A DNA stretch of 61,860 nucleotides from Candidatus Thorarchaeota archaeon (GTDB lineage Archaea; Asgardarchaeota; Thorarchaeia; Thorarchaeales; Thorarchaeaceae). The stretch is from NCBI GenBank assembly GCA_016839275.1, contig JAEOUM010000117.1:1-61860 (forward strand), read 5' to 3'. The notes below the pieces were generated by a model. The model was given only the letters and a program-made list of their open reading frames with translations. It did not search any database and was not told the origin of the DNA. Shown piece by piece: positions 22,919-47,647 of this stretch; within the stretch, counting starts at the first letter, position 1; the number at the start of each line of letters is the position of its first letter. A program made the position numbers and the translations under genes.

Positions 22919-23590
22919 TTAGTCCCGGACACGCATCTGAATTGCTGCGAGGATTTCTTCCGCTCTGTCAGTTTCTTTCTGTACTTCTTTCAACTCAGTC
23001 TTGAGTCTGTAAGTGTACCCTGATCTATTCCCATAACGTTCTAGATGTCCTTTACCGTTATTCCACATCCGGGCTAAATACGTTGAAGCCGTGCTTTTAG
23101 GCAAATCCTCGCTGAATGAGTCTTCATAGATTTCGGCAACATCAAGCGATGAAAATTTCCCATGTTTGAAAGATGCATAGATAATAAGCTGCATCTTCTC
23201 AAAGTTACTCATCGAGTCAAAACGACTTTCATCGAATCCACTCTCTGATATTTCCTCAACAACTTCTTCAAATGTACAACCTGTACTCGTTTCTAAGAAT
23301 ACCTTAAACTTAGCAAACATTTCTTCTACACTACCGCCCTTCACCTGAAAACTAGACTCTTCTCCCATAGTTTCATCAGATACTACTATCTTGAAATCAA
23401 AGGGCGCCTCTGTGAGCGAGAGAATCTTACTAAATCTGTTGAGTGCTTCACTCGGATTCACATACTTGCATTGAAAAATCTCTCGGAGACCAGGAGCTGA
23501 GTAATAAGTAAATTCATAGACATAGTTGGTCCGGTCTCCATCACTCAATTTTATCACCACTAGAAGATACACACTAGATCTTCTATTCAT
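22919..23590 (-). CDS. Hypothetical protein with a C-terminal winged-helix-like DNA-binding segment
   Basis: SLDVAEIYEDSF...STYLARMWNNGKGHLERYGNRSGYTYRL resembles helix-turn-helix plus a beta wing. The N-terminal alpha/beta half is unassigned. Confidence 0.5.
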   Translation of the reverse strand: MNRRSSVYLLVVIKLSDGDRTNYVYEFTYYSAPGLREIFQCKYVNPSEALNRFSKILSLTEAPFDFKIVVSDETMGEESSFQVKGGSVEEMFAKFKVFLETSTGCTFEEVVEEISESGFDESRFDSMSNFEKMQLIIYASFKHGKFSSLDVAEIYEDSFSEDLPKSTASTYLARMWNNGKGHLERYGNRSGYTYRLKTELKEVQKETDRAEEILAAIQMRVRD

Positions 23591-24032: not shown

Positions 24033-25040
24033 TTAGATTGGCAGCAAATAGTCTGTCGAATCCTCTCCCAAAACAAGCTGTTGAAAACAATCTCCGGTAA
24101 CAGTATCAGTAACCCTTTCGAGACGTCCTTTTGCCATCGCAGACATTCCTTTTGTAACTTGTTCGGTGAATCGTCCTCGATAACTAACAAGTCTTTTGAG
24201 ATCTGTATTTTCTGACGATTCGACAGTATAGACACAGGGTGTAAAAATGGAGTCTGTGTCATCTTTGATGATGCAACAGGTTGTATAGTCATCTATCATC
24301 TCATACTGCATTCTTCCATAATACTCATCGATTTCTTCGGAGCGTCTGACCAGTCTAATGAAAAATTCATGTTCGTTAAAGAGACCCTGCAGAATTTTCC
24401 TACTCTCAATCTCCCTAAGCATATCATGATATCTAACCAATTCACCCCATCTAAAAGCTAAATGAGCATTCAAAAGATCTCCAGAATACTGTCTGACTCC
24501 TTTTATCTTATTGTAGTTATTAGACATATTATCATAGAATTTCCTACACGCCGCATCTCCATAGACAACTAGGTCGATATCCGACGTTGCTGTTGCTATA
24601 TCCAGAAGCTGTGATCCTGTTATACCAATATCAGACCATGATATCCCAGTCGACTGAACTAGATTTCTAACCAAACCATATGTTGCTTCTTGAAGATCAG
24701 TCTTCATTCCACGGTCATTTCTCATGCGAGATAAGTACTCTACTGGACTAAGAATTGAAACAATGTTCTCTCTTCCAACAGACTGTACGACTCTTCCATG
24801 GGCTTTACTAAACCATAGATACTCTGGGAAGTTAGATTTTAGATAGTCTTCTCTTTTTTTAATATCATAGATTTTCTGATAATTCGAATCTGATTTCGTC
24901 TTACTTTCTTCTGGCACATATCTCAAATAAGCTATGATACGGTCTTTTGGATGTATAACTCCTTTTACTTCAAAGACAAGGTTTTCGGAAGTGATGATAA
25001 AATAACCCTCAACAAGATTCTCAAATGACACATTCATCAT
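24033..25040 (-). CDS. Pol-beta-superfamily nucleotidyltransferase domain protein
   Basis: NTase signature GITGSQLLDIATATSDIDLVVYG. The N-terminal ~110 aa and the C-terminal domain are unassigned. Confidence 0.6.
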   Translation of the reverse strand: MMNVSFENLVEGYFIITSENLVFEVKGVIHPKDRIIAYLRYVPEESKTKSDSNYQKIYDIKKREDYLKSNFPEYLWFSKAHGRVVQSVGRENIVSILSPVEYLSRMRNDRGMKTDLQEATYGLVRNLVQSTGISWSDIGITGSQLLDIATATSDIDLVVYGDAACRKFYDNMSNNYNKIKGVRQYSGDLLNAHLAFRWGELVRYHDMLREIESRKILQGLFNEHEFFIRLVRRSEEIDEYYGRMQYEMIDDYTTCCIIKDDTDSIFTPCVYTVESSENTDLKRLVSYRGRFTEQVTKGMSAMAKGRLERVTDTVTGDCFQQLVLGEDSTDYLLPI

Positions 25041-26320: not shown

Positions 26321-26602
26321 TCACATGAGCGTAAAGCTCGGAGGAAAGAACACGAAATATTGTACCGTGATTGCTAGGAGGATTCCACCCAGAACTAATC
26401 CTTTTCCCCTTTTTGAGTTCACTTCAGTGAACCAGAGAATGGCACCTATGAGAACTACAATGAACGACGAGATATTTCCTATGAAAATTAGAAAGTCCCA
26501 AATCTCTGCGAAGTACCCTGCTATCAGATTCGCAAAGTCCACAAGGGGACTTAGAATATAGAAATTCATTGATATATCCTCATACAGTAGTTTACTACTC
26601 AT
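26321..26602 (-). CDS. Small membrane protein (2-3 TM), unknown function
   Basis: Hydrophobic helices FLIFIGNISSFIVVLIGAILWF and GLVLGGILLAITVQYFVFF. Confidence 0.4.
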   Translation of the reverse strand: MSSKLLYEDISMNFYILSPLVDFANLIAGYFAEIWDFLIFIGNISSFIVVLIGAILWFTEVNSKRGKGLVLGGILLAITVQYFVFFPPSFTLM

Positions 26603-28974: not shown

Positions 28975-29781
28975 GTGCCACAGTTGGATAGTCCTATAAT
29001 TATCAAACTCGGTGGATCTGTTATAACATTCAAAGGCTCATCCCCGCCACGTGTTAACGATGAACACCTCAGTCGGATTGCTGAAGAGTTAACAGTGTGT
29101 AATAGCCCGCTTATAGTAGTTTTAGGTGGTGGAGCTCATGGTCATCAAGCTGCACACAAACATGGATTTGGGACTCCTAACTCCTCCCCAGAAGAACTAC
29201 TAGCTGGAATACCTGACATCCGTCATAATATGTCACTTTTGGCTTCAAGAGTTGAAAGTGAGATGAATCACCAAGGAATCCCCAGTGTTGTATTCTCTCC
29301 ATTTACCTTTGTTACATTACAAGATAGTTTCATAGATGAATTTCCTCTTGGTATTATCAAAAAGACACTAGAAACAGGGACTGCTGTAATAATCCATGGT
29401 GATGTTTGTTTTGATAGAACAAAGGCTGCATCTATTTTGAGTGGAGACACAATTGCTGTGCATCTTGCAGAAAAGCTTGCTGCAAAAGCTGTTCTCATTG
29501 GTACTAATGTAGATGGAGTCCTTGAAGAGAATCCACAAACTAATCCCAACGCAAGATACATTCCTCTTATCAATCGTGCAAATATCAACCAAGTACTAAC
29601 ACACACAGGGCCTTCCTCTGATACTGATGTTACCGGAGGTATGACTAAGAAAATCAGCGAGCTTCTTGAATTATCAAACCAGAATGTAGACATAGCAATT
29701 TTTAATCTAACAGTTCCGGGGCGATTAACTGATTTGATAAAAGAAAAGCCTACAATCTGCACACGAATACATTTTTCCTAG
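28975..29781 (+). CDS. Isopentenyl phosphate kinase (amino-acid kinase family)
   Basis: IIKLGGSVIT and VVLGGGAHGH (IPK-type His). C-terminal VTGGM. GTG start. Confidence 0.75.
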   Translation: MPQLDSPIIIKLGGSVITFKGSSPPRVNDEHLSRIAEELTVCNSPLIVVLGGGAHGHQAAHKHGFGTPNSSPEELLAGIPDIRHNMSLLASRVESEMNHQGIPSVVFSPFTFVTLQDSFIDEFPLGIIKKTLETGTAVIIHGDVCFDRTKAASILSGDTIAVHLAEKLAAKAVLIGTNVDGVLEENPQTNPNARYIPLINRANINQVLTHTGPSSDTDVTGGMTKKISELLELSNQNVDIAIFNLTVPGRLTDLIKEKPTICTRIHFS

Positions 29782-32700
29782 ACGACTAAGGTCGAAATAT
29801 TATCATCCATTGTCCTAATTATCAGATTTCCTGGTGTTACTACGGTATCTTCAAGATATTCAGACGCAGTTAGAACACACACAACTTGGATTGACTTACA
29901 CGTTCTGCAAGCCAAATTACTATGAAGATTCAATAGAGTACTCAATTGCTGTTGATTTGGAAAGATTACGTATGATGTATTGCCTGCACACAGATCATAA
30001 TACCCATGATCCCGAGAAACTTCTAGACGATGTTTTTTGAGCTCGGTTTCGATAATACCTGTAGCCTTTTCTTTTAATTTCTGCAAAATTGAAGAATTAA
30101 TTATCCATAGACCTTGTTCAACATCGATGAGATTACTTTCAGCATTAGTACGCAATGCAATCAGGACTTCATCAGCAAGTAACTCAGTAAGCGCACGTTT
30201 TCCTTCATCAGCAGTTAAGGGTGCAGATCTCCCTTTCAGAGACTGAAGAGCTGTGGTTTCAATAAAGTCAAGAAGCACCTCCCATCTAACTTGCCCGTTT
30301 GACAAATCAACAAAATCTTGAATCAGCCCAAACCATAAGCGGATTTGAATGGCTCTACTAGTGGCTGGTCCAATCTCATGTATTGCTTCAATTAAGTCTA
30401 CATCTTCTGTGTCTTCTACAACTTGAGGTTTATCATTTGAGTCGTTGATGTAAACCGATTGGGCTAGGCTCTCTATCATGGAATCAAGAGAGCTTGGAAA
30501 GGCGGATACAACGTTTACTGCATTGTACACTTCATCATTATCAAGAATTTCTCGAAGCTTGGCTGCCGCAACACTTCCTCTCACTACAACGAACAATTCA
30601 CTTATGCCATTTCGAAGAATTCCCATATGATGTTGGATTTTGCCTAAGATTGTATTCATGGATGATGCTCTAAGATGTTCAGGTATGATGACCACTGCTT
30701 TGTCTTCAATAATAATATCTGGAAAATCAGTTTGAGAATCACGCGTCATAGAGTTGCTCAGTTCAATGTCTAGCTTTGTAGACACGTACTCAATAATCAC
30801 ATTGCGAATAGCATCTAAACCCTGTCCTGGTAATGTATATACAAAACCTCCTGAAACAAGTGATAGTGACTCCCGATCAATGGTTCCCAACGTAACAAGT
30901 TCTCTAATCACCTCAGAAACATCATCCTCCATTGCTGATGAATCAAGAGATGATACAAGATTGCGAATTCGTTGCTCGGTAGCCATACCTTCCGAGGCTA
31001 AGAATGCAACAATGTGACTACCCAATCGTCCAACCCTATCAAAAACAACTGTCTGCGCCTCGGCTTCAAGAGTATCCTGAGTTGGCTTGTCTAGTGGTTT
31101 GGATATTTTTCTTTCATCAGGAACTTTACTTTGTATAAGTTCCAAGTCATTTCCCTTTTGTTCCAGACTTGATTCACTATCTGCAACCTCCGGATATTTG
31201 TCAATAAATGGTTTAGTAGCAATTTCAAAAGTTTCAGTATCAGGAACTGCTACTAAAGCTCGTCCACGTTTCATACTTCTCAGATAGACTTCCTGATCCG
31301 GTGTTAGTGAAAGAAACTTACTACCTATTTGACTATCATAGGGTAATCGGAATACAATCTTTGTGGCTGTATTAGCTAAGATATTTGATGATATGTTTGG
31401 TCTGGTTGATACTACAATGACACCTTGGCCGGTCGCGCGTTGCAATAACACCATAGATTCTCCTGTTGTCACATCAGCTGATGATTGTCTTGAATAGCTC
31501 TCAGGTACAAGATTGCTTGCTTCTTCAAGAACCACAACATGATGCAGTCCAGGGACAATGCCTCTCTTCATAGCGCTATCAAAGATTCGTTTGGCTGTTA
31601 GATTATACAATAGACGCGCTGACTCCATACCCCCGACTCTAGCCACATGGCTAAGATCTAGAATCACACGTTTATCTAGTAGATTTGAGATTTTAATCGC
31701 ATCTGAACCACCGCGGAGAATTTCACCTAAAGGCTCTCGGCAGAGAATCTGAAGTCGATTAAGGAGAGCATCACTTGTCATCTTGCCTGCTCTATCATCA
31801 GTAGCCACTTGTGTTACCATATTAACCAGTGATTGAATGGAGTTATCTTCATCTAGTGATTCTGCTAACATCAGTATTGATTCTCTTAGTAGTTTCTCCA
31901 TAGCTGGTGAGAGCTCTGATGATTCACCTTTCTCCTTGAGAAGCTCTCTCAGCATGACAAAAGTTGAGTATGCACAGCTCTGATCATTTCCAATATCTGG
32001 ATCCATCAAGTTTATGATAAATGACTTATCAAGACCAGGTTTAAGAACCACTACTTCATCATCCACCGTCCCAGCAAGGCCTGAATACTCAGTTCCTTTA
32101 ATATCAAATATCCACCATGGTATGTCAGTCTTCTTACTAATTTGAGAAATTAGATGTTTTACAAGAGTTGTTTTTCCTGTTCCAGTGGCACCTAACACGG
32201 CAATATGTTCTCTTAGCCATTCTATCTTCAGACCAGCTTTCGAGAAACGACGACCTTCAAAAATAGTATCTCCTATTTCAATTTCATCACTCAGAGACTC
32301 GCGTGATGGAATTTGAAACACTGGAGCAAGATCATGACCAATAATTGGGAGTTTTCTGATTGGAGTATTTACAAACGACACGAGTTTGCTTACATGTAGT
32401 CTTTGTTTCTTCAGATGGTTTCTTGTTAGAAGCTTAAGAAATGTTCTTTGTGATATTTTCTGAGGAATAAGCTTGATTTTATTATCTCCACCCCAAATAG
32501 ATTGGATAAGTCCGCTCAATCCCTCTTGAGAGATACTATTATCACCTAACGAATCTGATTTAACAACAAAATATACCGAAGAATCGAACCATCCTACATT
32601 GTCTTGAATTTCTTCATACTCTGTGATGAGTTTCTTTTTTTCTGCATGATCTTTCAACGATTCTTCTTTTCGTTTTTCCTTTGATTGTATTGTTTTCCAC

Positions 32701-33566
32701 TTGCCTTCAAGCTTTTGCTTCTCCTTACCTGGTTTAGAAGCTGAAAAGACACAGGTTATACTGGTGGAGTAGTTTTGTTTCAATATTGTAGAAAGAAACG
32801 TTCCTATTTGAGACGAATCAATTGTGGGCTTGACTTGAGGACTTCCTTTCAGAAGCAACAATGATATACCATTAATGTGCGCTTTTGATAATTCCTCTTC
32901 TTCATACTCGAATTCATTTGTAAATGAACATACTGCATCTCGAAGATCATTGTCTTCGAGCACTCGAAGTTCTACTGAATTTAATGATGCTAGAAGAATA
33001 GCTTCAACCCTTGTAGCTTCTCTCCTAAGAATCTCTCGAATAGTATCTATATCGAAACTTGTTACAGTGATGAAAATTCTGAGAAATGGATTGCCCCTTG
33101 ACAATCCTGCTTCAAATGCCATACTAACAGATTTGTTCATTCCCGCACGAATTGCAAGCAACATGGAACCATTATATTTTGGTCGTCCATTTTCATCCAA
33201 AAAGACTGAACTTGATACAGAAACTATCTCTAAACAGCACACTCCAGTCATGTGCTCTTCGACATTTACTATGAGAATCTCTTTCTCTGTCGATATTGCG
33301 AGAGTTCTCTGAACCATCTGGCGCTTACTAAGAGCTATTCCACTTATAATTGGACCCAAACAGACTACACTCTCAAAAACAGTCTTGAAGGGAATAATAG
33401 GTGTGCTAATCACCTTAACGAGTGGTAATACATAGACCGTAAGAAAATACAGAATTGCTGTTCCAGTTCCAATAAACCAAATTCTGCGTAACCAAACCAA
33501 TCCTCTAAAGCCTTCTCGTGTAGTACTACTTGTTGCTTCTCTTTTGAAGGGCAATTTGAATGGCAT
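29778..33566 (-). CDS. Membrane-anchored HerA/FtsK/VirB4-like P-loop ATPase (1262 aa) with large unassigned N- and C-terminal regions
   Basis: Two N-terminal TM helices (aa ~28-80). Walker A LGATGTGKTT (32169-32192) and Walker B HHVVVLEEASNLVPE. A HerA-type distal segment GQGVIVVSTRPNISSNILANTATKIVFRL. A winged-helix-like stretch near aa 850-900. Confidence 0.7.
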   Translation of the reverse strand: MPFKLPFKREATSSTTREGFRGLVWLRRIWFIGTGTAILYFLTVYVLPLVKVISTPIIPFKTVFESVVCLGPIISGIALSKRQMVQRTLAISTEKEILIVNVEEHMTGVCCLEIVSVSSSVFLDENGRPKYNGSMLLAIRAGMNKSVSMAFEAGLSRGNPFLRIFITVTSFDIDTIREILRREATRVEAILLASLNSVELRVLEDNDLRDAVCSFTNEFEYEEEELSKAHINGISLLLLKGSPQVKPTIDSSQIGTFLSTILKQNYSTSITCVFSASKPGKEKQKLEGKWKTIQSKEKRKEESLKDHAEKKKLITEYEEIQDNVGWFDSSVYFVVKSDSLGDNSISQEGLSGLIQSIWGGDNKIKLIPQKISQRTFLKLLTRNHLKKQRLHVSKLVSFVNTPIRKLPIIGHDLAPVFQIPSRESLSDEIEIGDTIFEGRRFSKAGLKIEWLREHIAVLGATGTGKTTLVKHLISQISKKTDIPWWIFDIKGTEYSGLAGTVDDEVVVLKPGLDKSFIINLMDPDIGNDQSCAYSTFVMLRELLKEKGESSELSPAMEKLLRESILMLAESLDEDNSIQSLVNMVTQVATDDRAGKMTSDALLNRLQILCREPLGEILRGGSDAIKISNLLDKRVILDLSHVARVGGMESARLLYNLTAKRIFDSAMKRGIVPGLHHVVVLEEASNLVPESYSRQSSADVTTGESMVLLQRATGQGVIVVSTRPNISSNILANTATKIVFRLPYDSQIGSKFLSLTPDQEVYLRSMKRGRALVAVPDTETFEIATKPFIDKYPEVADSESSLEQKGNDLELIQSKVPDERKISKPLDKPTQDTLEAEAQTVVFDRVGRLGSHIVAFLASEGMATEQRIRNLVSSLDSSAMEDDVSEVIRELVTLGTIDRESLSLVSGGFVYTLPGQGLDAIRNVIIEYVSTKLDIELSNSMTRDSQTDFPDIIIEDKAVVIIPEHLRASSMNTILGKIQHHMGILRNGISELFVVVRGSVAAAKLREILDNDEVYNAVNVVSAFPSSLDSMIESLAQSVYINDSNDKPQVVEDTEDVDLIEAIHEIGPATSRAIQIRLWFGLIQDFVDLSNGQVRWEVLLDFIETTALQSLKGRSAPLTADEGKRALTELLADEVLIALRTNAESNLIDVEQGLWIINSSILQKLKEKATGIIETELKKHRLEVSRDHGYYDLCAGNTSYVIFPNQQQLSTLLNLHSNLACRTCKSIQVVCVLTASEYLEDTVVTPGNLIIRTMDDNISTLVV

Positions 33567-33904: not shown

Positions 33905-35833
33905 TTGGCTGGAGCTCTAATTCTATTGTTGCTTGCTTTGGCAAGTAATCCAGTCAGTGCTGAAGGAGAAATTGTTGTACTACGTGGAGAAAATGTTACA
34001 ATCACTGTTCATCTTTTACAAAATGGGACTTTTGGCGATCCTGTTCCTAATCAGTCAATTGAATTTTACGATCAGACTCATAATATACTACTAGATATCG
34101 ATGCAACTAATGCTTCTGGTATAGCATCAATCAATTGGGTTATCCCTCTGGGGTTTCCATTGGGACCGACGCTTATCAATGCCACATTCCGAGGTAATGA
34201 ATCACTATTTCTTTCTCCGTCGACTCAGTGGGTAATATTGAATATTGTATCTTCTACGCAGATAACTATCGAACACGAGATTGGCCCTTTTGCACCTGGC
34301 GATTCTTTCTGTTTAACAGCTTCTTTATTTGATGACGCAAACACACCAATATCTGGCGCGATGCTTATTGTAATGAGCGGGAATATTCAACTAGCATCTT
34401 CTATCACAAATTCATCAGGGATAGCACTATTCTCAATCCAGTGTAATACTTCATGGGCTAATTTGGGAGAGAATACTATTCGAGTCATACACCAAGAGGA
34501 CTTTGTCAATTTCTATACAAGTGCCGAAGAATCATTCACAATAGACCTACAGCAAGTAGTAACCTCAATTAATGTCGAGAATCATCCAGATGAGGTTCTA
34601 CTTGGTGATAATCTTACCATTGATATTAACCTGTCAGGATCTGATGGTGGCATTTCTACGGAAGTTGGTATCTATGTTGATGATGACCTTTTTGATACGC
34701 TTATGACGAATGCTTTGGGCAATGCTACAATTTATCTAAATGTAGACACTAGATTCAAGCCGGGATTGCATACCTTTCATTTAACATACAATGGAACTGA
34801 GCGTTATACGAGTTCATTCATTAATTTTGAATTGAAAATTATGAGTCCTGCTTTCCTAGATATTGAGATTCCTGCAATTCCCGTAATTGGAAGTGTCGCA
34901 CTGATTACAATAGTAGTCAACGATTATTTTGGTCGGCCATTTGAAGGAACCTTCATCAAACTTTCAGACAATACAGATGGATTTAACACGACCCTACAAG
35001 TTCTCTACAACCCTCCGGCTTTAGAAATACTATTTCCATTTTCAGATCCTCCTGGCATACATTATCTACAAACGAAGGTGGAAAGCCCATTCATCACGAA
35101 TGATACCTATTACTTTTCTTTGCTAGTTTGGTCCAGACCAGTATTAATATTGCAAGAAAGTAACGTTGTTCATTACGCCTCTCTTGGTCAAGAGCTTATT
35201 TTTACTATCAGGTTAACAGACTGGAATGGAAACTGCTCTTATCGTCGCCTCCAAATCCTAATCAATAGTCTTGTTATATTATCCAAAACAACTGACAATG
35301 ATGGAATAGTTACCTTGAAGATTATCGCACCAAACTCAGAAGGTTTGTATAATGTTTCTATTGTTTATGCAGGCAATAATACTCTATTCGAAACTTCAGC
35401 TAAGTATGACTATCAGCTTACAGTCAGTCGCCTTATTCCAGTTTATTTAGAGTTACATCAGTTTGAGGTTTTCCCACCACTTCAAGAGGTCACAGTACAT
35501 CTCAAGGTTCAATGTCTGAACGGATCTCTGCTGGCGGGGATACAAATTAACTTCGTCTGGCTTTCCTATGAAGTTCGAGTTCAATCACAACAAGGAGGAG
35601 TTCTAATACTTCATCTTCCTGTCCCTTCAAAAGAGGGCAATTATTCATTACACTATGAGATAAAGAGCGGGTCTGGCTTATCCTATTCCTCCGGTTCTAT
35701 CGAGATTACTATTCTATTAGTAGATGTGCTGGCATCCCAAGGCATTGGTATTGGAGGATTTGCATTTAGTATAATGGTTTCCCTTGTTACTATTACAATC
35801 CCAGTGCTAAGACAGCGATATCTTACTAGATAA
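33905..35833 (+). CDS. Secreted, C-terminally membrane-anchored surface protein with repeated Ig-like beta modules
   Basis: Signal peptide LILLLLALASNPVSA. Dense N-x-S/T sequons (NVT, NGT, NQS, NAS, NAT and NES in the first 100 aa). C-terminal TM FAFSIMVSLVTITIPVL plus a basic tail. TTG start. Confidence 0.6.
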   Translation: MAGALILLLLALASNPVSAEGEIVVLRGENVTITVHLLQNGTFGDPVPNQSIEFYDQTHNILLDIDATNASGIASINWVIPLGFPLGPTLINATFRGNESLFLSPSTQWVILNIVSSTQITIEHEIGPFAPGDSFCLTASLFDDANTPISGAMLIVMSGNIQLASSITNSSGIALFSIQCNTSWANLGENTIRVIHQEDFVNFYTSAEESFTIDLQQVVTSINVENHPDEVLLGDNLTIDINLSGSDGGISTEVGIYVDDDLFDTLMTNALGNATIYLNVDTRFKPGLHTFHLTYNGTERYTSSFINFELKIMSPAFLDIEIPAIPVIGSVALITIVVNDYFGRPFEGTFIKLSDNTDGFNTTLQVLYNPPALEILFPFSDPPGIHYLQTKVESPFITNDTYYFSLLVWSRPVLILQESNVVHYASLGQELIFTIRLTDWNGNCSYRRLQILINSLVILSKTTDNDGIVTLKIIAPNSEGLYNVSIVYAGNNTLFETSAKYDYQLTVSRLIPVYLELHQFEVFPPLQEVTVHLKVQCLNGSLLAGIQINFVWLSYEVRVQSQQGGVLILHLPVPSKEGNYSLHYEIKSGSGLSYSSGSIEITILLVDVLASQGIGIGGFAFSIMVSLVTITIPVLRQRYLTR

Positions 35834-36065: not shown

Positions 36066-36272
36066 CTAGGGCATGCTGAATAGCTGAGTAAGATTATTCC
36101 AACTATCCTGTAGTAACTGCAATAGCCCCGTGATAACATCCTGTGCCCATCCGGTAGCTTGGAGGATAACTGCAATGACTATCGACACAGTCACTACAGC
36201 AAGACCTAGAAGAAGGCTTTCCTCAACCAGCGGGCCGCCCTGTTCATTGTCAATTAGATTTTGATTATCCAT
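36066..36272 (-). CDS. Flp / class III signal peptide-type pilin-like protein (68 aa)
   Basis: QGG|PLVEESLLLGLAVVTVSIVIAV: a Gly, then Glu at about +5, then a hydrophobic helix, as in Flp/type IV pilin precursors. Lies immediately downstream of the secretion ATPase. Confidence 0.45.
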   Translation of the reverse strand: MDNQNLIDNEQGGPLVEESLLLGLAVVTVSIVIAVILQATGWAQDVITGLLQLLQDSWNNLTQLFSMP

Positions 36273-36370: not shown

Positions 36371-38065
36371 TTACCTAGGAGAAACGCCAACAAATTTCAT
36401 TGGATGCCCATATGACCACATTCTCTCACCAAGTCTTTCAAAATCTGTCGCGTCACTACAATTTCGAACCGTTTCTATTAATGTATCGATAACGCTCTGG
36501 TGGTTTTCTATATCAAGACTTCTCGCAAGAATCTGAAATATGCCATCTTGTGCCCAATGTATTATATTTGGATTTGTAACATCATACAAAACATTAGTGC
36601 CAAGGAATTCCAACAATCCATCTTTCATACCTTTCCGAATCTCAACAATCTCCTTGACATAACGTAGTGACTCCCCAGGTTTTGGTCTTTCTAAGGTGAT
36701 AATAAGATCCATCATTCCAAGGTTGGATCTTTCAATCTCATGCCCAATGTTCCATCTTGATATCAGACTAGAAGCTGAATCACTATGACAAGTCTGTATC
36801 GAGCGTAGTCCTGCTGCAATTGCTTGGAATAAAGCTTGGCTATGTTCAGCGGTCTGAATTTCACCAAGAATCAGGTAGTCCGGTGACCGGTGGAGACATT
36901 TAACAATCTCCTCACTTTTGTTCAGTATTTTATGATAATCATCAACAGGATTGACCTGTAGTCTGACTTGATGTTGATTTGCCAACGACCTACTCTCAAT
37001 TGCATCTTCTATGTAGATTTTCCTCCACCACTGAGGTGTAATCATGTCAAGTGCATTTAGAAGCGTTGTTTTTCCTGTTCCTGGTCCCCCAGTGATAGTA
37101 ATGTTGAGTCTACTTACAATGGCTAATATCAATATTGCCGCAGCTTCAGGCGTAATAGTATTATTCTCTATGAGGCTCTTTATCGAGAATGGCTCTTTAC
37201 GAGCACGACGAATTTCAAGATACAAGCCCTCTGTACTTAGAGGTGGCACGCTAGCTGATAAACGTAGAATTATGCCTAATAGATTTAATTCCATTTTAAG
37301 AGATGGATTTCCTCTATCAAGATGCAGATTGCTCTCAGCTCTAATGAATGTAATAATCCGTGGAATTTCTTCTGCGCGGTAAGTAATCGATGTGATGCAT
37401 CTACCGAATTTTTGGTGATCAAAATACACTTCAGTATCTGCTCCATCAAAATATACCTCCTCCGTTAATTCATCCAAAAGAATCGGGATTAGAGGACCTA
37501 AGATGCTTGTTGAATGAGCAGCTATTTGAGAGAGTCTTGTTCTTGTATTTTCATTGATTTCTGGAATATGTTGCTGGATATAATCCGAGATCTCTCTCAT
37601 CACTCTATCCTGTTGTCTTGTTGCCTGTTCTCTACTCCCCGAGATAGGACTCATAAAACTCTTGAACTCACTGGCAAGGTCATTCAATAATGAAAGCTCT
37701 AGGGAGGTTCTTACTATAGGTATACACATGTATCTAACTTGACGATTTTCGCCTTGGTTCATGAAGAAACACAAATAGGGTCCAACACAATAAACATCAA
37801 CGAGCTCATCAAGCTCATGAAAAAGAACATTATTAGCTCCAATGAATACTGATTCCCATCTCTCTGAGTACCACGGAGCATCGTCTAATGAAGGAAATTC
37901 CGGAAACCAAAAATGCAGTAGTCCACGTTCTTTTTCAGTAAGAACAATGGGCCTATCACATGCTTCTACCAATACATGGAGCTTCTGGCATATTGAACTA
38001 GTTCTTTCGCAACAATCTTCACATCTATCCACTGGACAATGGATGATAGTCACTTCCGGTTTCAT
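36371..38065 (-). CDS. Type II/IV secretion-system ATPase (TadA/CpaF/PilB/FlaI family)
   Basis: Walker A TGGPGTGKTTLLNAL. Walker B/Asp box SPDYLILGEIQTAE. His box TCHSDS. The N-terminus is Cys-rich (HCPVDRCEDCCE). Confidence 0.8.
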   Translation of the reverse strand: MKPEVTIIHCPVDRCEDCCERTSSICQKLHVLVEACDRPIVLTEKERGLLHFWFPEFPSLDDAPWYSERWESVFIGANNVLFHELDELVDVYCVGPYLCFFMNQGENRQVRYMCIPIVRTSLELSLLNDLASEFKSFMSPISGSREQATRQQDRVMREISDYIQQHIPEINENTRTRLSQIAAHSTSILGPLIPILLDELTEEVYFDGADTEVYFDHQKFGRCITSITYRAEEIPRIITFIRAESNLHLDRGNPSLKMELNLLGIILRLSASVPPLSTEGLYLEIRRARKEPFSIKSLIENNTITPEAAAILILAIVSRLNITITGGPGTGKTTLLNALDMITPQWWRKIYIEDAIESRSLANQHQVRLQVNPVDDYHKILNKSEEIVKCLHRSPDYLILGEIQTAEHSQALFQAIAAGLRSIQTCHSDSASSLISRWNIGHEIERSNLGMMDLIITLERPKPGESLRYVKEIVEIRKGMKDGLLEFLGTNVLYDVTNPNIIHWAQDGIFQILARSLDIENHQSVIDTLIETVRNCSDATDFERLGERMWSYGHPMKFVGVSPR

Positions 38066-39829: not shown

Positions 39830-41692
39830 GTGCGAAAAAGAGGCCTCGCAGTAATTTCCATCTCTCTATTAATTGTGTTCGGATTGACGCTACCAGCCAC
39901 AGCATTCTATTTTGACTTTCAGTATTTTGAAACCGATAAAATGGTCTATGAGGTCGGTGAAACTATTGAAATGGCTGCCAGATTAATTGCTGACTTTAGT
40001 CCTGAAGGATGGTGCTATGTTTCCTTTGCTGTTGTTACTGATTTAGGGCCCGCCTTTGCAGATGAGTATTTCATTCCTCCTCTGCCAAATGCACGTATAG
40101 TAAACTCCTCATACACAATCTTTCCAGAACACGTTAATCCGGGAGAGAATAGTTCTTTTGCTTTTGTGCTATTTAACGTTGAAATATTTGATACAGTATC
40201 TCAGGGTGCAGAGGATAGTATTGAGGTAAGTATCACCAGAGGTCACCTTACAGTAATCCCATTATCTTCATTAATTGTGCAAACCGGAACGAATACCACG
40301 TTCAGTCTAAAAGTTGTATCTGTATATGATGACAACATCCCCTATAGTAGTGAATCTATTAATCTCCATGTCAAAGATCCCAGTTCAGCCACTATTGTTA
40401 ACAGTAATATCTCTACAAACCCCGATGGGACATTCAGTCTAGACTGGAACAGCTCAATGGTTCTTCCCGGAATCTATGACTTGATTATCACTGGATATGG
40501 GAATGCTGATTTTCTCAGTTTTACTAAAACATTGCATGTTAATGTTGTCCCCGCCGCCTCTAGTCTCACTCTTCTCACTGCACCGGAATCAATTCCGTGC
40601 CAATCTCCTGATGGAAGTCATTTTGAGTATGCAGACATATTTGTCAAACATGAAGCTACAGATCAAACCGGAATTGACGATAGTATACTTTATTGGAATA
40701 CAAGCTTTGGAAGTGGCGAATTAACAAATCTTGGTAATGGTGAATATAAGACTACAATTCCATTTCAAACAGCCTCAGGATTCCATTTAATCAATATAAC
40801 AGCTATCAATCCAGCTTACCAGACAGCTAACATATCTATACCAATCGAGGTTATCAGAAACACACTCTCCTTCTGTCCAATCCAAAACAATTGGTCGGTT
40901 GTACATGGGAACACAACAACCATTGATTTCATAATCGACGAGGAATTCAACTGGGGTGAAGATATACTCATCGAATTCATAGATGATTATAGAGAAATTA
41001 ATGTTTCAACAGATGTGTTGCCCGATTGCAGTAATACATTGGTGTTTACTGCTTGGAATAATCTATCCATAGGTCCTCATACAATTCATCCTCACATCAA
41101 GGGCGACTACTATGCTTTTTCAAACAACACTTCTTCATTCGAACTTATTATTCTTGGAAAAGTTAGTTTTAATATATCCGTAATATCTGCTTATTATGCT
41201 GAAAGCATTCAACTGAATCTTGAAGCTATTGAATTGATTAATTCCACAGTTGAATTGGCTACAGTAAACTTATACTACGGTAACGAAACCACTCCTTTCG
41301 GCACCTTAGAAAGCACTAACTTGACTCAAATGCTAACAATAGACTTACCGCAGTGGATATATCCTGGATTTCATTTATTATGCTTGAAAGTTTCAGTTCC
41401 TTATTATGTTCCTGCTCTCAATTTGATAAATGTATCAATCTGGATGAGAACAAATATCACAATTACTATTGAAACTGATGTCACACCAATATCTCTTTAC
41501 AATATAGATTCTGTTACTTTTCCAATTACCTATGATTGTTCCATTGCTTCAACCAGCTCATTAGGTTCAATCATTCGACCGCCACCTATTTTATTCAGTG
41601 GTACCACAACAACTGAGTCCTTCACCACGCGTAATACCTCTCTTGATAATTGCCCAAGATTCAATTCTGGAACTAGAATTTTTTCCACTTGA
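39830..41692 (+). CDS. Secreted sequon-rich protein (620 aa), unknown function
   Basis: Signal peptide RKRGLAVISISLLIVFGLTLPATA and many N-x-S/T sites. The last ~54 codons run antisense to korA, so the true 3' end is uncertain. Confidence 0.5.
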   Translation: MRKRGLAVISISLLIVFGLTLPATAFYFDFQYFETDKMVYEVGETIEMAARLIADFSPEGWCYVSFAVVTDLGPAFADEYFIPPLPNARIVNSSYTIFPEHVNPGENSSFAFVLFNVEIFDTVSQGAEDSIEVSITRGHLTVIPLSSLIVQTGTNTTFSLKVVSVYDDNIPYSSESINLHVKDPSSATIVNSNISTNPDGTFSLDWNSSMVLPGIYDLIITGYGNADFLSFTKTLHVNVVPAASSLTLLTAPESIPCQSPDGSHFEYADIFVKHEATDQTGIDDSILYWNTSFGSGELTNLGNGEYKTTIPFQTASGFHLINITAINPAYQTANISIPIEVIRNTLSFCPIQNNWSVVHGNTTTIDFIIDEEFNWGEDILIEFIDDYREINVSTDVLPDCSNTLVFTAWNNLSIGPHTIHPHIKGDYYAFSNNTSSFELIILGKVSFNISVISAYYAESIQLNLEAIELINSTVELATVNLYYGNETTPFGTLESTNLTQMLTIDLPQWIYPGFHLLCLKVSVPYYVPALNLINVSIWMRTNITITIETDVTPISLYNIDSVTFPITYDCSIASTSSLGSIIRPPPILFSGTTTTESFTTRNTSLDNCPRFNSGTRIFST

Positions 41693-43166: not shown

Positions 43167-44372
43167 ATGGTTCATGATTATGTTGAAGACGAATTGAGCA
43201 GACGAAGTGTTTTCAAGTCTGAGCAATTTCTATCAATTGATTATGTACCCGAGAGCCTACCACATCGTCAATCTGAACTCAGAACGCTGGCTCAAAACTT
43301 CACGACTCTAATTCGTTCGCCAGGTAGAACCAGCCACAAATTCATCATTGAAGGTCCAGTCGGAACCGGAAAGACTGCAGTTGCTAAAAGATTCGCTGAA
43401 CAAATGGTCCAAGCCGCGGAACGACGAGAGATTAATCTTCACAATATACACATCAATTGCCGTGTCAATAAGACAGCCTATCTTGTTTTTCTACGTGCGC
43501 TCCGTGAATTCAAACCAGAATTTCCCCGGCGCGGTCATTCTCCTGAAGAATTACTTCAAATGTTGGTTGAAGTTCTCGATGAAGAAGATCGATACCTTTT
43601 GCTCATTCTTGATGAACTTGATTATTTCATCCGGCAAAGAGGTGCTGATATTCTATACGATTTAACAAGACTCACAGATGACAGATTAAATGCAAAACAA
43701 CGTGTTTCAATAATCGCAATAGGGCGTAGGATACCATTTGATGAAGATGCTGTTGATTCAAGTACACTGAGTACCCTCCAACGGAATATCTTACGGTTTT
43801 CCAAGTACGGTAGAAACGCTCTATATGATATTCTCAAAAACCGTGTTGACATGGCTTTTGAAAAGAATGCCGTTATGGATGAGACTCTCCATGTTATCTC
43901 AGATATTGCATCAGAAAGAGGTGATGCACGATATGCTATCGAGCTTCTATGGAGAGCAGGAAAACAAGCTGATAGTAGTCAAGTGAGTACAGTAGTTCCA
44001 GATTTCGCTCGTCAAGCAAAAGCAGACACACATCCTGAATTACGAAAGGAAATATTCAGCACGCTCACTCCTCAACACAAACTGTTTCTTCTAGCCACAG
44101 CTCGTCAGTTGAAAGAAACGCGTAGTGATTATGTTACCATAGGTGAGGTTGAAGAGATGTATCACTCAGCATGTGAGGAATATAGAAAAGAGCCAAGAGC
44201 GCACACCCAGATTTGGGAATGGGTTCAAGATCTTAACGCTCATGGAATAATCGATACGAAACGATCAGGAAGTGGCCAGAGAGGTCAGACAACACTCATT
44301 GGGCTTTCTGATGTTCCTGCAGAGATGTTAGAACACTTTATAGCTCATCTTCTAGATTCAAAGGAGTTGTGA
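43167..44372 (+). CDS. orc1: Orc1/Cdc6 replication initiator
   Basis: Walker A GPVGTGKT, Walker B LILDELD, sensor-2 GDARYAIELL and a C-terminal winged helix. Confidence 0.9.
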   Translation: MVHDYVEDELSRRSVFKSEQFLSIDYVPESLPHRQSELRTLAQNFTTLIRSPGRTSHKFIIEGPVGTGKTAVAKRFAEQMVQAAERREINLHNIHINCRVNKTAYLVFLRALREFKPEFPRRGHSPEELLQMLVEVLDEEDRYLLLILDELDYFIRQRGADILYDLTRLTDDRLNAKQRVSIIAIGRRIPFDEDAVDSSTLSTLQRNILRFSKYGRNALYDILKNRVDMAFEKNAVMDETLHVISDIASERGDARYAIELLWRAGKQADSSQVSTVVPDFARQAKADTHPELRKEIFSTLTPQHKLFLLATARQLKETRSDYVTIGEVEEMYHSACEEYRKEPRAHTQIWEWVQDLNAHGIIDTKRSGSGQRGQTTLIGLSDVPAEMLEHFIAHLLDSKEL

Positions 44373-44379
44373 AATTTTA

Positions 44380-44664
44380 GTGAAAACAGACAGCTCTCCG
44401 AAAATTGCAATTGAAGATCTTTTTTCATCTAGAGGAAGAATCAAGATACTTAGAGAACTTGCAGAATCTAATGAATTGAACATCTCAGAGCTTTGTAGGA
44501 GAGTAGATCTTAATCACAGCTCAACAAAGTCACACCTTGAAGTGCTTTTGAGCTCCGGACTAATCGAAGAGAAGAGATTTGGTCGAATTAAGATATATCG
44601 CTATAAGATTGAGGACTTGAGAGCACGCTCACTCCGGAGCTTCTTCGATCTCTGGGAATCATGA
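44380..44664 (+). CDS. ArsR/SmtB-type winged-helix transcriptional regulator
   Basis: RIKILRELAESNELNISELCRRVDLNHSSTKSHLEVLLSSGLIEEKRFGRIKIYR. GTG start. Confidence 0.65.
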   Translation: MKTDSSPKIAIEDLFSSRGRIKILRELAESNELNISELCRRVDLNHSSTKSHLEVLLSSGLIEEKRFGRIKIYRYKIEDLRARSLRSFFDLWES

Positions 44665-44678
44665 AGGAGTCTTAATAG

Positions 44679-45536
44679 ATGACAGACTATTTGGCGCGTC
44701 TGTTCTATCTTGGAGACCGCTATTACGGATCTCAGATACAACCTGGGCTAAAAACAGTCCAAGGAGAGCTTATCAAAGCTGTTTCGAAATGGAGTGGAGA
44801 AACCCACTCTTCGCATACAATTCAATTATCCGGGCGAACTGATAGAGGAGTTCACAGTCTAGGGCAATTGGTGATGATTACTACTGACAAGCGTTTCTCC
44901 ATCGATGGTATCAATAAGCATCTCCCTGAAGATATTGTACTTTGGGCACGAGTGCAGGCTCCTGAGGGATTTAGACCGCGTTCTGGTGCTTTAATGCGCC
45001 ACTACCGGTATTTCCTAGACGAATCTTGGAACAATATCAATCAGAACTACATTAGAGAAGCAATCTCTCTGGTTGTAGGATCAAATGATTTTAACTTCCT
45101 TTCAAAACCTGATGAACGCAGAAATACTGTTACCACAGTATTGAATGTGGCTTTTAGTGAGGTCCCTAATTTAAAATTTTTAGATATCTATGGAACCAGT
45201 TTCCTATGGAAGTTTGTGCGAAAAGTTGTGACATTATTGACTGCAATCGGTTTGGGGAAGATAAAACCTGAAACAATTCTTGAAATCCTTAATGGAAGCA
45301 AGAAAACTGTTCGAGGTGGAATAGAACCTGCACCACCAGAAAACCTTGTACTCATGGAAACTATTGTACCTTTCCGATTTATTACTAGTAAGTATGCACT
45401 ACGAAGAATTCAGAATTATCTTAATACTCGACGTGAATTTCTTAGACGATCTAGTATAACACTATTCGGTCTTACTGACCACTTCTCTTCTTCAATGATG
45501 TCTTATCAACACTCAACCAATTCGCATAATCCGTGA
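44679..45536 (+). CDS. truA: tRNA pseudouridine(38-40) synthase TruA/Pus1 family
   Basis: YYGSQIQPGLKTVQGEL and the catalytic loop SGRTDRGVHSLGQ. Confidence 0.85.
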   Translation: MTDYLARLFYLGDRYYGSQIQPGLKTVQGELIKAVSKWSGETHSSHTIQLSGRTDRGVHSLGQLVMITTDKRFSIDGINKHLPEDIVLWARVQAPEGFRPRSGALMRHYRYFLDESWNNINQNYIREAISLVVGSNDFNFLSKPDERRNTVTTVLNVAFSEVPNLKFLDIYGTSFLWKFVRKVVTLLTAIGLGKIKPETILEILNGSKKTVRGGIEPAPPENLVLMETIVPFRFITSKYALRRIQNYLNTRREFLRRSSITLFGLTDHFSSSMMSYQHSTNSHNP

Positions 45537-46701
45537 TACTTTTTGGCTTTAATCCAATTATTTCAGTGATAGTGTCATAATGAGTTCTCATCACTCTTGA
45601 TTTTGAAACTCCTGTTAATTTCGACAAACCTGATAAAACGTCTGACCGTTTGTCTTTTGATCTATTTCCCTGCCAAATTAGAAGTGGCCATGTAGGTTGA
45701 GAATAGCTGACCTTTCGATATGGAGTTATGTTTCTGCTCCCAGCAACACCAGTTGCAAGAAAATCATAGACATATGAGAGTAGTTTCCAATTCTGGTCTC
45801 TCATAATTCTCCCCAAAGCTAAATCTGCAAGTGAAAGTCCATCGAAACCATCACTCAATTCCTTCTGAGAGAGTAGATGCAGGTGTAGATTCTCTTCTAA
45901 CCACAATACTAACTCATCATGGTCAAGCTCAGATTCGGATAATATTCTTCGCGCAGTTTCTGCATCTGTTGTCATGAACACTCTTCGAAGTGTTTCTTCA
46001 GTTCCACGTCGAACATCTCTAATTGCGGCTTCGGTAGATGTATCTATTGTACCCCTTTTTACATAGGACTCGAGGTCTGAGATAGCAGCTCGAAGGTCCC
46101 CACCTGAGTTTTCTGCAATCTGATTGATTATTTCTTGTGAAACTTTAGCTTTGTTTTGTTTTGCTATTCGGAGAAGCACGGTAGTTATGTTTTCATTAGC
46201 AATTTGCTCAAAGGAAAATACTTGCGATATTTTATACAAGTCCTTAAGTCGTGGACTATTTGGGTCATTTGCAGTCATCACGATTGGATGGACTGATTCT
46301 TGAATCACTTTTACAATCGCACCAACACCGCCTCTATCACTCGTACCAGAGAGACCATCTACTTCATCTAAGAGAATTATTCTAAATCGTCCATCAAGAG
46401 TTTGCTGTGAAGCAGCTCTCCACACAAGGGTTTCAATACTATCTTTGTTTCTTTTATCACTTGAATTAAATTCGACAAGTTCCATATCTAATTCATTGGA
46501 CAACGCACCAACAGTAGCAGTCTTTCCAATACCTGGCGGTCCAATCAGTAGAGCGGCATGTTTACTGGGTATGCCTTTCTTCCAAGACATCACCCAGACC
46601 TTTAATGAAGCAATGGCATCCGGATTACCCACAATGAGTTCCAGATTTCTTGGTCGGTGTTTTTCTGGCCATGGAAGGCTCTCATCACTCATTACTACCA
46701 C
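45472..46701 (-). CDS. rfcL: Replication factor C large subunit
   Basis: WPEKHRP, Walker A GPPGIGKT and Walker B ILLDEVD. 17-nt overlap with rfcS. Confidence 0.85.
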   Translation of the reverse strand: MVVMSDESLPWPEKHRPRNLELIVGNPDAIASLKVWVMSWKKGIPSKHAALLIGPPGIGKTATVGALSNELDMELVEFNSSDKRNKDSIETLVWRAASQQTLDGRFRIILLDEVDGLSGTSDRGGVGAIVKVIQESVHPIVMTANDPNSPRLKDLYKISQVFSFEQIANENITTVLLRIAKQNKAKVSQEIINQIAENSGGDLRAAISDLESYVKRGTIDTSTEAAIRDVRRGTEETLRRVFMTTDAETARRILSESELDHDELVLWLEENLHLHLLSQKELSDGFDGLSLADLALGRIMRDQNWKLLSYVYDFLATGVAGSRNITPYRKVSYSQPTWPLLIWQGNRSKDKRSDVLSGLSKLTGVSKSRVMRTHYDTITEIIGLKPKSITDYANWLSVDKTSLKKRSGQ

Positions 46702-47647
46702 TACCTAATCCCACATGTGCTAAAAGAGCAGTGAGCTGAATTTCTCCGTTCGAACCCTCCCCGATTCTGAACTCGACTTCTGCAATTTGTTCTAGTATGT
46801 CCATTTGAAGCTGATTTGGTAGATTAAGTGTTTGAATCTCCTTATGCATTTGTTTCACTAAATCAACAGGAGAAACACCCTCATGGTAGATTAATGATCT
46901 AAGAGCCTGCAAAGCATCATTGTATCTACCATCACGAGCATCCGTTATCATTGTTTTCACAGTTTCAGGACTAGCTCTACCAGATATTGCATAAACAATC
47001 TTGTCTGTGATTTGTTGGCCAGTTGATGATGCTGCCTGTAAAAGGTTAATCGCAGCTCTCATATCTCCTTCTGTAAGATAGAGTATTGCATCAATTCCTG
47101 TTTGGTGGATTTTGATTTTTTCTAGGTCTGCTATATGTTTCAAACGAGTAGCTATTCCATCATCATCTAATCGCGAAAATCTGAATATTGCACATCTTGA
47201 TTGTATCGGCGGGATTATCCTGCTTGAATAGTTGCAAATCAAAATCATTCTACAAGATTGAGAGTAAGATTCCATAGTCCTTCGAAGAGCATGTTGAGCA
47301 TCAGTAGTCAGATGGTCCGCTTCATCTAGTACAAGAATCTTAAACGGCGCATTGCCTGATGGCATTATTCTTGCAAAGTTCTTTATCTGATTTCTGACAA
47401 CATCAATACCTCTCTCATCACTAGCATTAAGTTCCATGAAGTTACGTTCATAGCTATCTCCAAACAGATCCTTTGCCATTGCCATTGCTGCTGTTGTCTT
47501 ACTAGTTCCTGGTGGACCAGTAAAGAGACAGTGAGGCACTGCTTTATTCTCGACAAACATCACTAGGCTCTTGATAATCTGTTCCTGGCCTATTATACCA
47601 CCAAGAGTGGGTGGTCGGTATTTCTCAGTCCAAAGGTCTAAGTCCAT
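46685..47647 (-). CDS. rfcS: Replication factor C small subunit (no intein)
   Basis: WTEKYRP, GPPGTSKTT, VLDEADHLT and the SRC motif IQSRCAIFRF. ATG at 47645-47647 is preferred. Confidence 0.9.
   Translation of the reverse strand: MDLDLWTEKYRPPTLGGIIGQEQIIKSLVMFVENKAVPHCLFTGPPGTSKTTAAMAMAKDLFGDSYERNFMELNASDERGIDVVRNQIKNFARIMPSGNAPFKILVLDEADHLTTDAQHALRRTMESYSQSCRMILICNYSSRIIPPIQSRCAIFRFSRLDDDGIATRLKHIADLEKIKIHQTGIDAILYLTEGDMRAAINLLQAASSTGQQITDKIVYAISGRASPETVKTMITDARDGRYNDALQALRSLIYHEGVSPVDLVKQMHKEIQTLNLPNQLQMDILEQIAEVEFRIGEGSNGEIQLTALLAHVGLGSGSNE

Follow-up and report, generated by a model that had tools for sequence, protein, structure and literature searches.

The 61,860-nucleotide stretch analyzed here (hereafter, the window, also rounded to 62 kb; positions 1 to 61,860 of contig JAEOUM010000117.1, assembly GCA_016839275.1, from a Candidatus Thorarchaeota archaeon) encodes on its minus strand (29778-33566, ATG start) a giant, 1262-aa membrane-anchored VirB4-like ATPase, a kind of motor that drives conjugation machines in bacteria; in it, a transmembrane (TM) hairpin is followed by a VirB4-type N-terminal domain, a HerA/VirB4 P-loop ATPase, and a C-terminal extension. 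We consider the chances evenly balanced that this giant ATPase is the motor of a chromosomally fixed, Ced/Ted-like apparatus derived from type IV secretion systems (T4SSs) in Thorarchaeota-type Asgard archaea. The fold of the N-terminal domain, the catalytic residues, the conservation of the protein, and its gene linkage carry this reading, from which we infer how such an apparatus may assemble, the part that a candidate pilin may play, and DNA as the possible substrate. To our knowledge, conjugation-derived chromosomal DNA-exchange machines in archaea are known only from Thermoproteota (Ced and Ted), and a search of the open-access literature found no description of such an Asgard system.

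Domain architecture of the giant ATPase

More than 220 homologs of ~1255-1266 aa, 55-88% identical end to end, establish the giant ATPase as a genuine gene rather than a chance open reading frame (ORF), and its ATG start is backed by the N-terminal ‘MPF.L’ that homologs share. An earlier note, made from the letters of the window alone, had picked out the same ORF at 29778-33566, and every sequence feature that it listed was borne out by translation, hydropathy, motifs, or homologs. The two N-terminal TM helices that it named appear in hydropathy plots as a hairpin (aa ~26-80; 33327..33491, minus) composed of a strong TM1 (~aa 26-50, with a peak at about aa 29-60) and a weaker TM2 (~aa 62-80). 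Basic residues flank the hairpin before TM1 and after TM2; the topology fits an N-in/C-in arrangement, in which case the remaining protein would be cytoplasmic. VirB4 is the pilus-biogenesis ATPase of T4SSs, and in bacteria it is membrane-associated via the two-TM protein VirB3, which is at times fused to it. The hairpin is placed where VirB3 stands in such VirB3-VirB4 fusions and, by analogy, its two helices may take over the role of VirB3. Both VirB3 and VirB8 are missing from archaea, in which TM helices of their own are found in roughly half of the CedB, CedD, and VirB4 proteins (PMC11868833).

The assignment to the VirB4 class derives from the domain that follows. For aa 85-440, an AlphaFold2 (AF2) model computed from an alignment of 51 sequences is confident (pLDDT 82, pTM 0.80), and in a Foldseek search of the PDB its top 14 matches are without exception chains of TrwK/VirB4 from R388 (E 2e-8 to 2e-7, probability 1.00, TMq ~0.5, ~380-400 aligned columns). 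The fifteenth match reaches only E 2.5e-3; the significant matches are thus the 14 TrwK/VirB4 chains, with no HerA structure among them. Because the query contains no P-loop, the match is taken to run from N-terminal domain to N-terminal domain. The ~315 formerly unassigned residues (aa 85-396; 32379..33314, minus) are assigned by the model to the VirB4/TrwK-type N-terminal fold, and since the N-domain folds in this manner, the first ~790 aa can be read as a TM-anchored VirB4-class ATPase. The membrane-tethered ATPase of the FtsK/HerA superfamily that had been predicted is supported, and the same fold places it on the VirB4 branch. A Lys/Glu-rich segment, likewise predicted, is present at aa 281-320 (21 Lys or Glu per 40 residues) inside the N-domain, where the model shows a helical pair (aa ~282-321). 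The estimate that ~900 aa were unassigned holds at the level of sequence profiles (aa ~85-428 and ~790-1262) but proved too high, as ~315 of these residues form the modeled VirB4 domain.

The P-loop core (aa ~429-790; 31197..32282, minus), whose stretch from Walker A to Walker B is matched by the DUF87, CedD, VirB4, and HerA profiles, contains both motifs quoted in the earlier note, namely a Walker A motif, LGATGTGKTT (aa 458-467; 32166-32195, minus), and a Walker B motif, VVVLEEASNLVPE (aa 677-689, including VVVLEE from aa 677; 31500-31538, minus). The Gly/Lys of Walker A, the ‘EE’ of Walker B, R640 (numbered as in the outgroup ATPase P0140), and ‘RP..S’ are invariant in relatives of 24-28% identity; judged by its residues, the HerA/VirB4 P-loop domain is catalytically intact. 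The sole above-threshold sequence match is to the Pfam family DUF87/HerA-central (aa 429-615, 2e-13), with TrwB and HerA_C weak and no match to the Pfam CagE_TrbE_VirB model. The best NCBIfam match is CedD (4e-12; 45.7 bits vs. a cut-off of 600, over aa 428-495 only), and those to anti-phage-associated HerA (8e-8), VirB4_CagE (TIGR00929; 4e-7, 28.6 bits vs. a cut-off of 643.1), HerA (4e-5), and CedB (E 1.3e-3) are also sub-threshold, the HerA models scoring 14-31 bits vs. cut-offs of 800-970. Used as queries against PDB sequences, the protein and the family profile yielded HerA/DUF87 P-loop chains at a marginal level and no significant match.

The C-terminal extension

As the earlier note had remarked, the giant ATPase is bigger than VirB4, CedB, or CedD; the difference is due to a C-terminal addition of ~470 aa (linker plus extension). 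An AF2 model of aa 781-1262 (pLDDT 69) shows folded units with disordered linkers between them, in the order acidic disordered linker (aa ~791-829, minus), winged helix, alpha/beta unit, linker, winged helix, and beta-rich Cys unit. Unit 1a, which is winged-helix-like by its modeled secondary structure (aa ~830-911; 30834..31079, minus; pLDDT 80-90), has a conserved signature, ‘RE..L.LV.GGF.Y.LPG’; unit 1b, the alpha/beta unit defined by the model and by conservation (aa ~945-1042; 30441..30734, minus), displays ‘RGSVAAAK.RE ... AFPSS.D’, conserved among members of 41-69% identity; and unit 2, in which a second winged-helix-like part (aa ~1067-1157) is joined to a beta-rich, Cys-containing end (aa ~1158-1235; together 29862..30368, minus), has a conserved W/G/W/F/T/S pattern. 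The extension is as conserved as the motor (50-86% identity). The winged-helix-like stretch foreseen by the earlier note is thus represented in the model by two such units, although their structural resemblance to known folds is weak: unit 1a resembles the winged helices of MarR, MukE, and HxlR at a Foldseek probability of 0.9-0.98 with E>0.01.

Comparison of the C-terminal region with PDB and BFVD (Foldseek) gave nothing at E<=1e-3, and no consistent Pfam family emerged from searches with 8 diverse members and then with 8 distant relatives. Weak Foldseek matches to the XPF/Hef nuclease fold were found that could not be assigned to any one unit. A nuclease role for the alpha/beta units was rejected as unsupported, given that no acidic residue is invariant among the 41-69%-identical members and that P0128 lacks part of the Cys cluster; internal duplication of the extension (unit 1 vs. 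unit 2) was likewise rejected (hhalign probability <1%). Units 1a and 1b are common to the 937-aa outgroup protein P0140 (E 3e-8) and to a 226-aa stand-alone homolog, P0253, whose 1.3-kb contig is uninformative for context, and unit 2 is restricted to the Thorarchaeota-type clade. The extensions of distant relatives gave sub-threshold TrmB/HTH_24 matches and one faint PD-(D/E)xK match in Pfam; in addition, a ‘winged helix then beta-alpha-beta’ unit recurs in them by eye. At the sequence level, the ~430 folded C-terminal residues constitute a new, family-specific module.

Winged helices in motors of the FtsK/HerA superfamily typically recognize DNA, the gamma domain of FtsK and TraB being examples, and by analogy with these the most plausible role of the extension would be DNA or partner binding. 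The analogy also raises the alternative that the giant ATPase is an FtsK/SpoIIIE analogue, a membrane-anchored pump that clears or segregates DNA at the division site while its winged helices read polarity or origin/terminus. FtsK/SpoIIIE and Streptomyces TraB are of the same superfamily and combine N-terminal anchoring in the membrane with a hexameric motor of DNA-pump type and with a winged helix at the C-terminus that recognizes DNA motifs, and the layout of the giant ATPase (N-terminal TM, linker/domain, motor, C-terminal winged helix) mirrors that of FtsK. A single-copy, chromosomal, class-wide gene located within ~10 kb of Orc1/Cdc6, RFC, and MCM, both here and in the loci L007 and (distant) L091, would also suit such a pump. 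Nevertheless, the N-domain is specifically VirB4-like, not an FtsK alpha domain; no FtsK alpha/beta/gamma profile is matched (FtsK_SpoIIIE and Ftsk_gamma, Pfam and NCBIfam, E<=0.01); the C-extension is larger and multi-domain; and the conserved partners described below, being located outside the cell or in the membrane, would be superfluous for a segregation pump. As the proximity to replication genes may also be inherited synteny, we regard an FtsK-like function as improbable.

Distribution and chromosomal setting

The full architecture is confined to Thorarchaeota-type metagenome-assembled genomes (MAGs). An exhaustive search of 1.84 billion representatives recovered it in only ~9 clusters at 50% identity, 41-69% identical, and the MAGs holding the homologs of 55-88% identity are labeled Thorarchaeota, with a few Sif-, Prometh-, Hermod-, or Odinarchaeota. 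A wider set of relatives (27-32% identity, 850-1440 aa) aligns only at aa ~130-790, i.e., over the N-domain and ATPase; these proteins also begin with TM helices (1-6 each) and have C-terminal extensions of their own. A scan of GTDB species representatives with a 10-sequence alignment returned 86 relatives, nearly all labeled Thorarchaeota, besides a few labeled Baldr- or Odinarchaeota and one unclassified outgroup. Members of more distant clades (P0147, P0150, P0161) are chromosomal and multi-TM, and their partners are not recognizable. The giant ATPase apparently occurs as one copy per genome. Four MAGs contain two copies on separate contigs (L063/L070, L020/L084, L018/L078, and L086/L088), the second copies being located on short contigs and differing in identity to the window (e.g., 88% vs. 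58%); mixed bins or strain heterogeneity are a more likely cause than true paralogs.

The gene is chromosomal and vertically inherited. Its neighbors are core genes that mark the contig as archaeal (archaeal/eukaryotic-type uS10, TFIIB, and isopentenyl phosphate kinase, with TFIIE, PAN, Orc1/Cdc6, RFC, and MCM farther away), its position among housekeeping genes is fixed in ~80 species, and the base composition shows no shift (GC ~0.40). The locus is free of an integrase, a tRNA target, and repeats, and IMG/VR contigs contain no relatives of the giant ATPase; a mobile-element origin was rejected on the basis of the missing IMG/VR relatives and the core genes on either flank. The genes for Orc1/Cdc6, the large and small RFC subunits, MCM, and a Hel308-like helicase occupy window positions 43167-52850, 10-20 kb from the ATPase gene, and Cdc6 and RFC are also encoded within ~7-10 kb of it in the 41%-identical L007 (1-4857) and in L091, the locus of P0161 from a distant clade (1-1877). 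This proximity may signify an origin-proximal location or merely old synteny.

The setting bears on the possibility that the protein is a HerA-type ATPase of anti-virus defense or is what remains of an integrated conjugative element. In favor of it, VirB4 proteins are usually encoded on mobile elements, and the match to the anti-phage-associated HerA model is joined by weak ones to the PADLOC HerA and mad8 models (4e-12 to 1e-8); all of these, however, cover the P-loop region only and fall far under the cut-offs. HerA, which acts in archaeal double-strand-break repair and anti-phage defense, resembles the giant ATPase in the DUF87 ‘HerA central’ match and in the HerA/DUF87 chains found by PDB sequence searches, whereas the giant ATPase differs in its VirB4-like N-domain and membrane anchor and misses the HerA equivalog models widely. 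Neither NurA nor an effector partner gene (Sir2, DUF4297, or nuclease) is present nearby. Together with the fixed housekeeping position, these differences make an origin in defense or in a mobile element very improbable.

Conserved gene neighbors

Linkage was counted across 80 GTDB species loci with enough flanking sequence. In relatives of 55-67% identity, gene order is preserved over the entire ~20 kb, down to the housekeeping genes; as this alone shows relatedness only, the rearranged or distant loci are the informative cases. Divergent from the ATPase gene lies that of a 642-aa surface protein with immunoglobulin (Ig)-like repeats (33905-35833, plus), which has a signal peptide, a C-terminal TM anchor, and a basic tail, and which is matched by the Pfam families Big_3_5 (2e-17) and Big_1. 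The Ig-like gene, with a product of ~650 aa, is situated at most 1 kb from the ATPase gene in 66 of 70 loci. In the reshuffled L007 and L060 (41% identity), the Ig-like gene (now co-directional; 3e-94 between the L007 and window proteins), the giant ATPase, and a T2SSE ATPase discussed below remain adjacent; in L051 and L057, the breakpoints of an inversion fall just outside the Ig-like gene and outside the small gene described next; and in L054, where gene order is scrambled, the Ig-like gene still adjoins the ATPase. In L008 and L009, whose ATPases belong with P0140 (28-30% identity) and whose other neighbors are all different, the ATPase has as its divergent partner a protein of 647 aa, a homolog of the Ig-like protein of the window (BLASTP 1e-16 over 551 aa) with signal peptide, repeats, and C-terminal TM laid out in the same way. 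The divergent pairing with a large surface protein seen in the earlier note is therefore kept as far as the 28%-identical outgroup, and the Ig-like protein is the single most invariant partner of the ATPase. A second large secreted protein (620 aa; 39830-41692, plus), with an N-terminal signal/TM segment and a weak MG2-domain match, is kept in the neighborhood in 64 of 88 loci and could be another surface component.

The second partner is a small two-TM protein encoded by a 93-aa ORF (26321-26602, minus), probably translated as 82 aa from Met12, as are most of its homologs. An amphipathic N-terminus precedes two hydrophobic helices with a short basic loop, TEVNSKRGKG, between them; this helix-basic loop-helix layout is that of VirB2, TraA, CedA1, and TedC, which makes the protein a candidate pilin. 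Its family comprises 662 members of ~80-93 aa from Thor- and Baldrarchaeia, all annotated as ‘hypothetical’ and devoid of any Pfam domain. The gene lies at most 6 kb from the ATPase gene in 51 of 56 loci, and in four loci labeled Baldr- or Odinarchaeota, whose ATPases (1067-1093 aa) are 27-31% identical, a homolog is encoded directly upstream on the same strand, with no Ig-like or T2SSE gene nearby. The earlier note had suggested looking for two-TM partners such as this ORF in syntenic loci, and the family indeed proved linked in Thor- and Baldr-type loci alike. Instead of being scattered with no conserved neighbors, the homologs of the ATPase co-vary with the Ig-like gene and the 93-aa ORF across deep divergence. 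The TrbC/VirB2 Pfam profile aligns over the hairpin of the small protein (profile positions 36-88 of 98) at E 0.005-0.08, no better than incidental TM families. So weak a pilin signal would be expected of a protein that has diverged as far as CedA1 and TedC have from each other, two proteins with no recognizable mutual similarity (PMC9905601); the small protein is kept as a candidate.

A 564-aa filament ATPase of the CpaF/FlaI/afGspE type (36371-38065, minus; Pfam T2SSE 5e-19, NCBIfam TadA 3e-29) is encoded within 6 kb of the giant ATPase in 53 of 56 loci and is restricted to the Thor-type clade, no T2SSE ATPase being encoded near the outgroup ATPases. Its best solved relatives are afGspE (5e-26), CpaF (8e-22), and FlaI (6e-16), all of them matching far better than VirB11 (3e-5); the ‘Tad-type’ label given beforehand is therefore appropriate, and identity as VirB11 was rejected. 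Adjacent to it is a 68-aa ORF (36066-36272, minus) in which ‘QGG|PLVEES’ precedes one hydrophobic helix, and the T2SSE ATPase is in every case followed by a homolog of 64-69 aa; by inspection, the product is pilin-like and may belong to the Flp/type-IV-pilin family. No platform gene of the PilC/TadC/FlaJ type is present in the window, although archaeal loci for type IV filaments usually have one. The N-terminus of the T2SSE ATPase is Cys-rich (CPVDRCEDCCERTSSIC).

These neighbors would also be compatible with surface biogenesis that does not involve DNA, whereby the VirB4-like ATPase would assemble, export, or anchor a structure of the Ig-repeat and/or two-TM protein (an adhesive fiber, envelope-spanning stalk, or protein-secretion conduit), with winged helices for protein contacts or regulation. 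We rate this, in all its variants, as somewhat unlikely. The invariance of the Ig-like partner, the role of VirB4 in pilus biogenesis, the type-IV-filament ATPase and pilin in the same neighborhood, the lack of linked DNA-processing genes, and a core-genome, apparently single-copy, vertical inheritance reminiscent of an envelope function all speak for it. Conversely, two winged-helix-like units in an FtsK/HerA-superfamily motor are more typical of DNA recognition, the signal peptide of the Ig-like protein should make a dedicated export ATPase unnecessary, and the Baldr-type relatives have no Ig-like neighbor.

Several further neighbors were recorded. A 335-aa soluble protein (24033-25040, minus), conserved in 63 of 88 loci, bears a faint signature of nucleotidyltransferases of the polymerase-beta type, GS..D.D (NTP_transf_2, E 0.012). 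ORFs without a Pfam match are located at 9995-11224 (minus, 409 aa), 11685-12227 (minus, 180 aa), 22919-23590 (minus, 223 aa; syntenic in 59 of 88 loci), and 47770-48408 (plus, 212 aa). In one Thorarchaeota sub-lineage, a 309-333-aa protein with 7-10 TM segments and no Pfam match is encoded between the p126 and TFIIB homologs (L028 2980-3981, L030 2982-3953, L031 3013-3942, and L033 3012-3941, all minus). Right after the VirB4-like ATPase, and convergent with it, Baldr-type loci encode a 367-380-aa MarR/HTH_45 winged-helix protein (L079 12831-13934, minus; L074 12372-13475; L076 4925-6067). Polytopic proteins near the Baldr-type loci were considered as a channel and rejected, being presenilin-like or weakly T2SSF-like instead.

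Comparison with known systems and proposed mechanism

The closest structural relative is VirB4/TrwK of R388 (PDB 7O41-7O43, 8RTB, and 8RTD), in which the same N-terminal fold precedes a P-loop of the FtsK/HerA superfamily. The N-terminal domains nevertheless share only ~9% identity, the giant ATPase falls far under the family cut-off, and VirB4 lacks the ~430-aa C-terminal extension. VirB4 is, moreover, plasmid-borne, whereas the giant ATPase is chromosomal, with no VirB6, VirB8, VirB10, VirB11, or VirD4 nearby.

CedB and CedD (Sulfolobales) and TedB (Thermoproteales) are archaeal, chromosomal, TM-anchored ATPases of HerA/VirB4 type with VirB4-NTD-like N-domains (NTD, N-terminal domain), an architecture to which that of the giant ATPase is analogous. 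CedD, which is essential for DNA import, joins a TM domain to part of the VirB4 NTD and to an ATPase of HerA/VirB4 type, and the N-domains of CedB and CedD superpose on portions of the VirB4 NTD (PMC11868833). Homologs of VirB4, VirB2, and VirB6 make up both Ced and Ted, and the two sets bear no sequence similarity to each other (PMC9905601); the ATPases of both systems act with a small two-helix VirB2-like pilin, CedA1 or TedC, and type IV pili (Ups) are required too (PMC11868833, PMC9905601). CedB and CedD, at ~530-590 aa (NCBIfam models of 590 and 527), each have a partial NTD, whereas the giant ATPase has a whole NTD and twice the length; its winged-helix C-extension is without Ced/Ted counterpart; and the VirB6-like channel of 6-7 TM segments (CedA/TedA) that Ced and Ted possess is not linked to it. 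The lineages also differ (Thermoproteota vs. Asgard), and DNA import is a demonstrated function of Ced, whereas for the giant ATPase it would be a predicted one.

If the giant ATPase does power a Ced/Ted-like apparatus, it would assemble as a ring on the cytoplasmic side of the membrane, held there by its own VirB3-like hairpin, and would pull the small two-helix protein out of the lipid bilayer in the way that VirB4 extracts VirB2. The extracted protein could then be polymerized into a conjugative-type pilus or conduit, while the Ig-repeat protein, as the surface component, would span the envelope or serve for adhesion. Binding of the substrate, most probably DNA, would fall to the winged helices of the C-terminus, in place of an FtsK gamma domain, TraB C-terminus, or coupling protein, for none of which a gene lies close by. 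A type IV adhesion pilus could come from the neighboring ATPase of CpaF/FlaI type together with the Flp-like pilin, much as Ups provides one for Ced.

Several observations weigh against this interpretation and leave the module for translocating DNA or other macromolecules that the earlier note had proposed at the stage of a prediction. No VirB6/CedA/TedA-like polytopic protein is encoded in the window or consistently within 10 kb across 91 loci, and no longer, CedA-like protein with a pilin-like segment occurs among all fetched ORFs; a VirB6-like channel could, by analogy with some Ted loci, be encoded elsewhere in the genome (PMC9905601). No relaxase, VirD4/coupling protein, or nuclease is linked; DNA is proposed as the substrate by analogy with the known motors; and the winged-helix assignments stem from weak structural matches (E>0.01). 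The pilin homology of the small protein is not significant by Pfam profiles, with no matches in PDB and NCBIfam, and the Ig-repeat partner is without counterpart in Ced, Ted, or classical T4SSs. Synteny in the Thor clade includes isopentenyl phosphate kinase, uS10, and GlmS, so that linkage there is weak evidence by itself, and the outgroup ATPases never adjoin both partners: of the two, Baldr-type loci encode just the small protein and L009 just the Ig-like one.

Significance

VirB4-type ATPases and their Ced/Ted derivatives are known; new here are the fused architecture, the orphan C-extension, the Ig-repeat partner, and the apparent lack of a linked VirB6. A bolder proposal, which we advance tentatively as a lesser possibility, is that, beside Ced and Ted, a third, hitherto undescribed T4SS-like machine has been domesticated in archaea, namely in Thorarchaeota and related lineages of Baldrarchaeia type; in it, one polypeptide would join VirB3-like, VirB4, and winged-helix substrate-recognition parts and, with a VirB2-like pilin and an Ig-repeat component and without canonical VirB6, would exchange DNA or macromolecules between Asgard cells or with syntrophic partners.

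In any event, three unannotated families have been defined, namely the ~430-aa C-extension, the ~82-aa two-TM protein (662 members), and the ~650-aa Ig-repeat partner, and even an apparatus that does not handle DNA would put a VirB4 motor to a new use. Models of eukaryogenesis give a central place to cell contact and gene flow, and the module is a testable candidate for intercellular transfer in Asgard archaea. If the interpretation is true, a class-wide Thorarchaeota motor of VirB4 type would provide a handle on gene exchange and partner contact in the closest prokaryotic relatives of eukaryotes.

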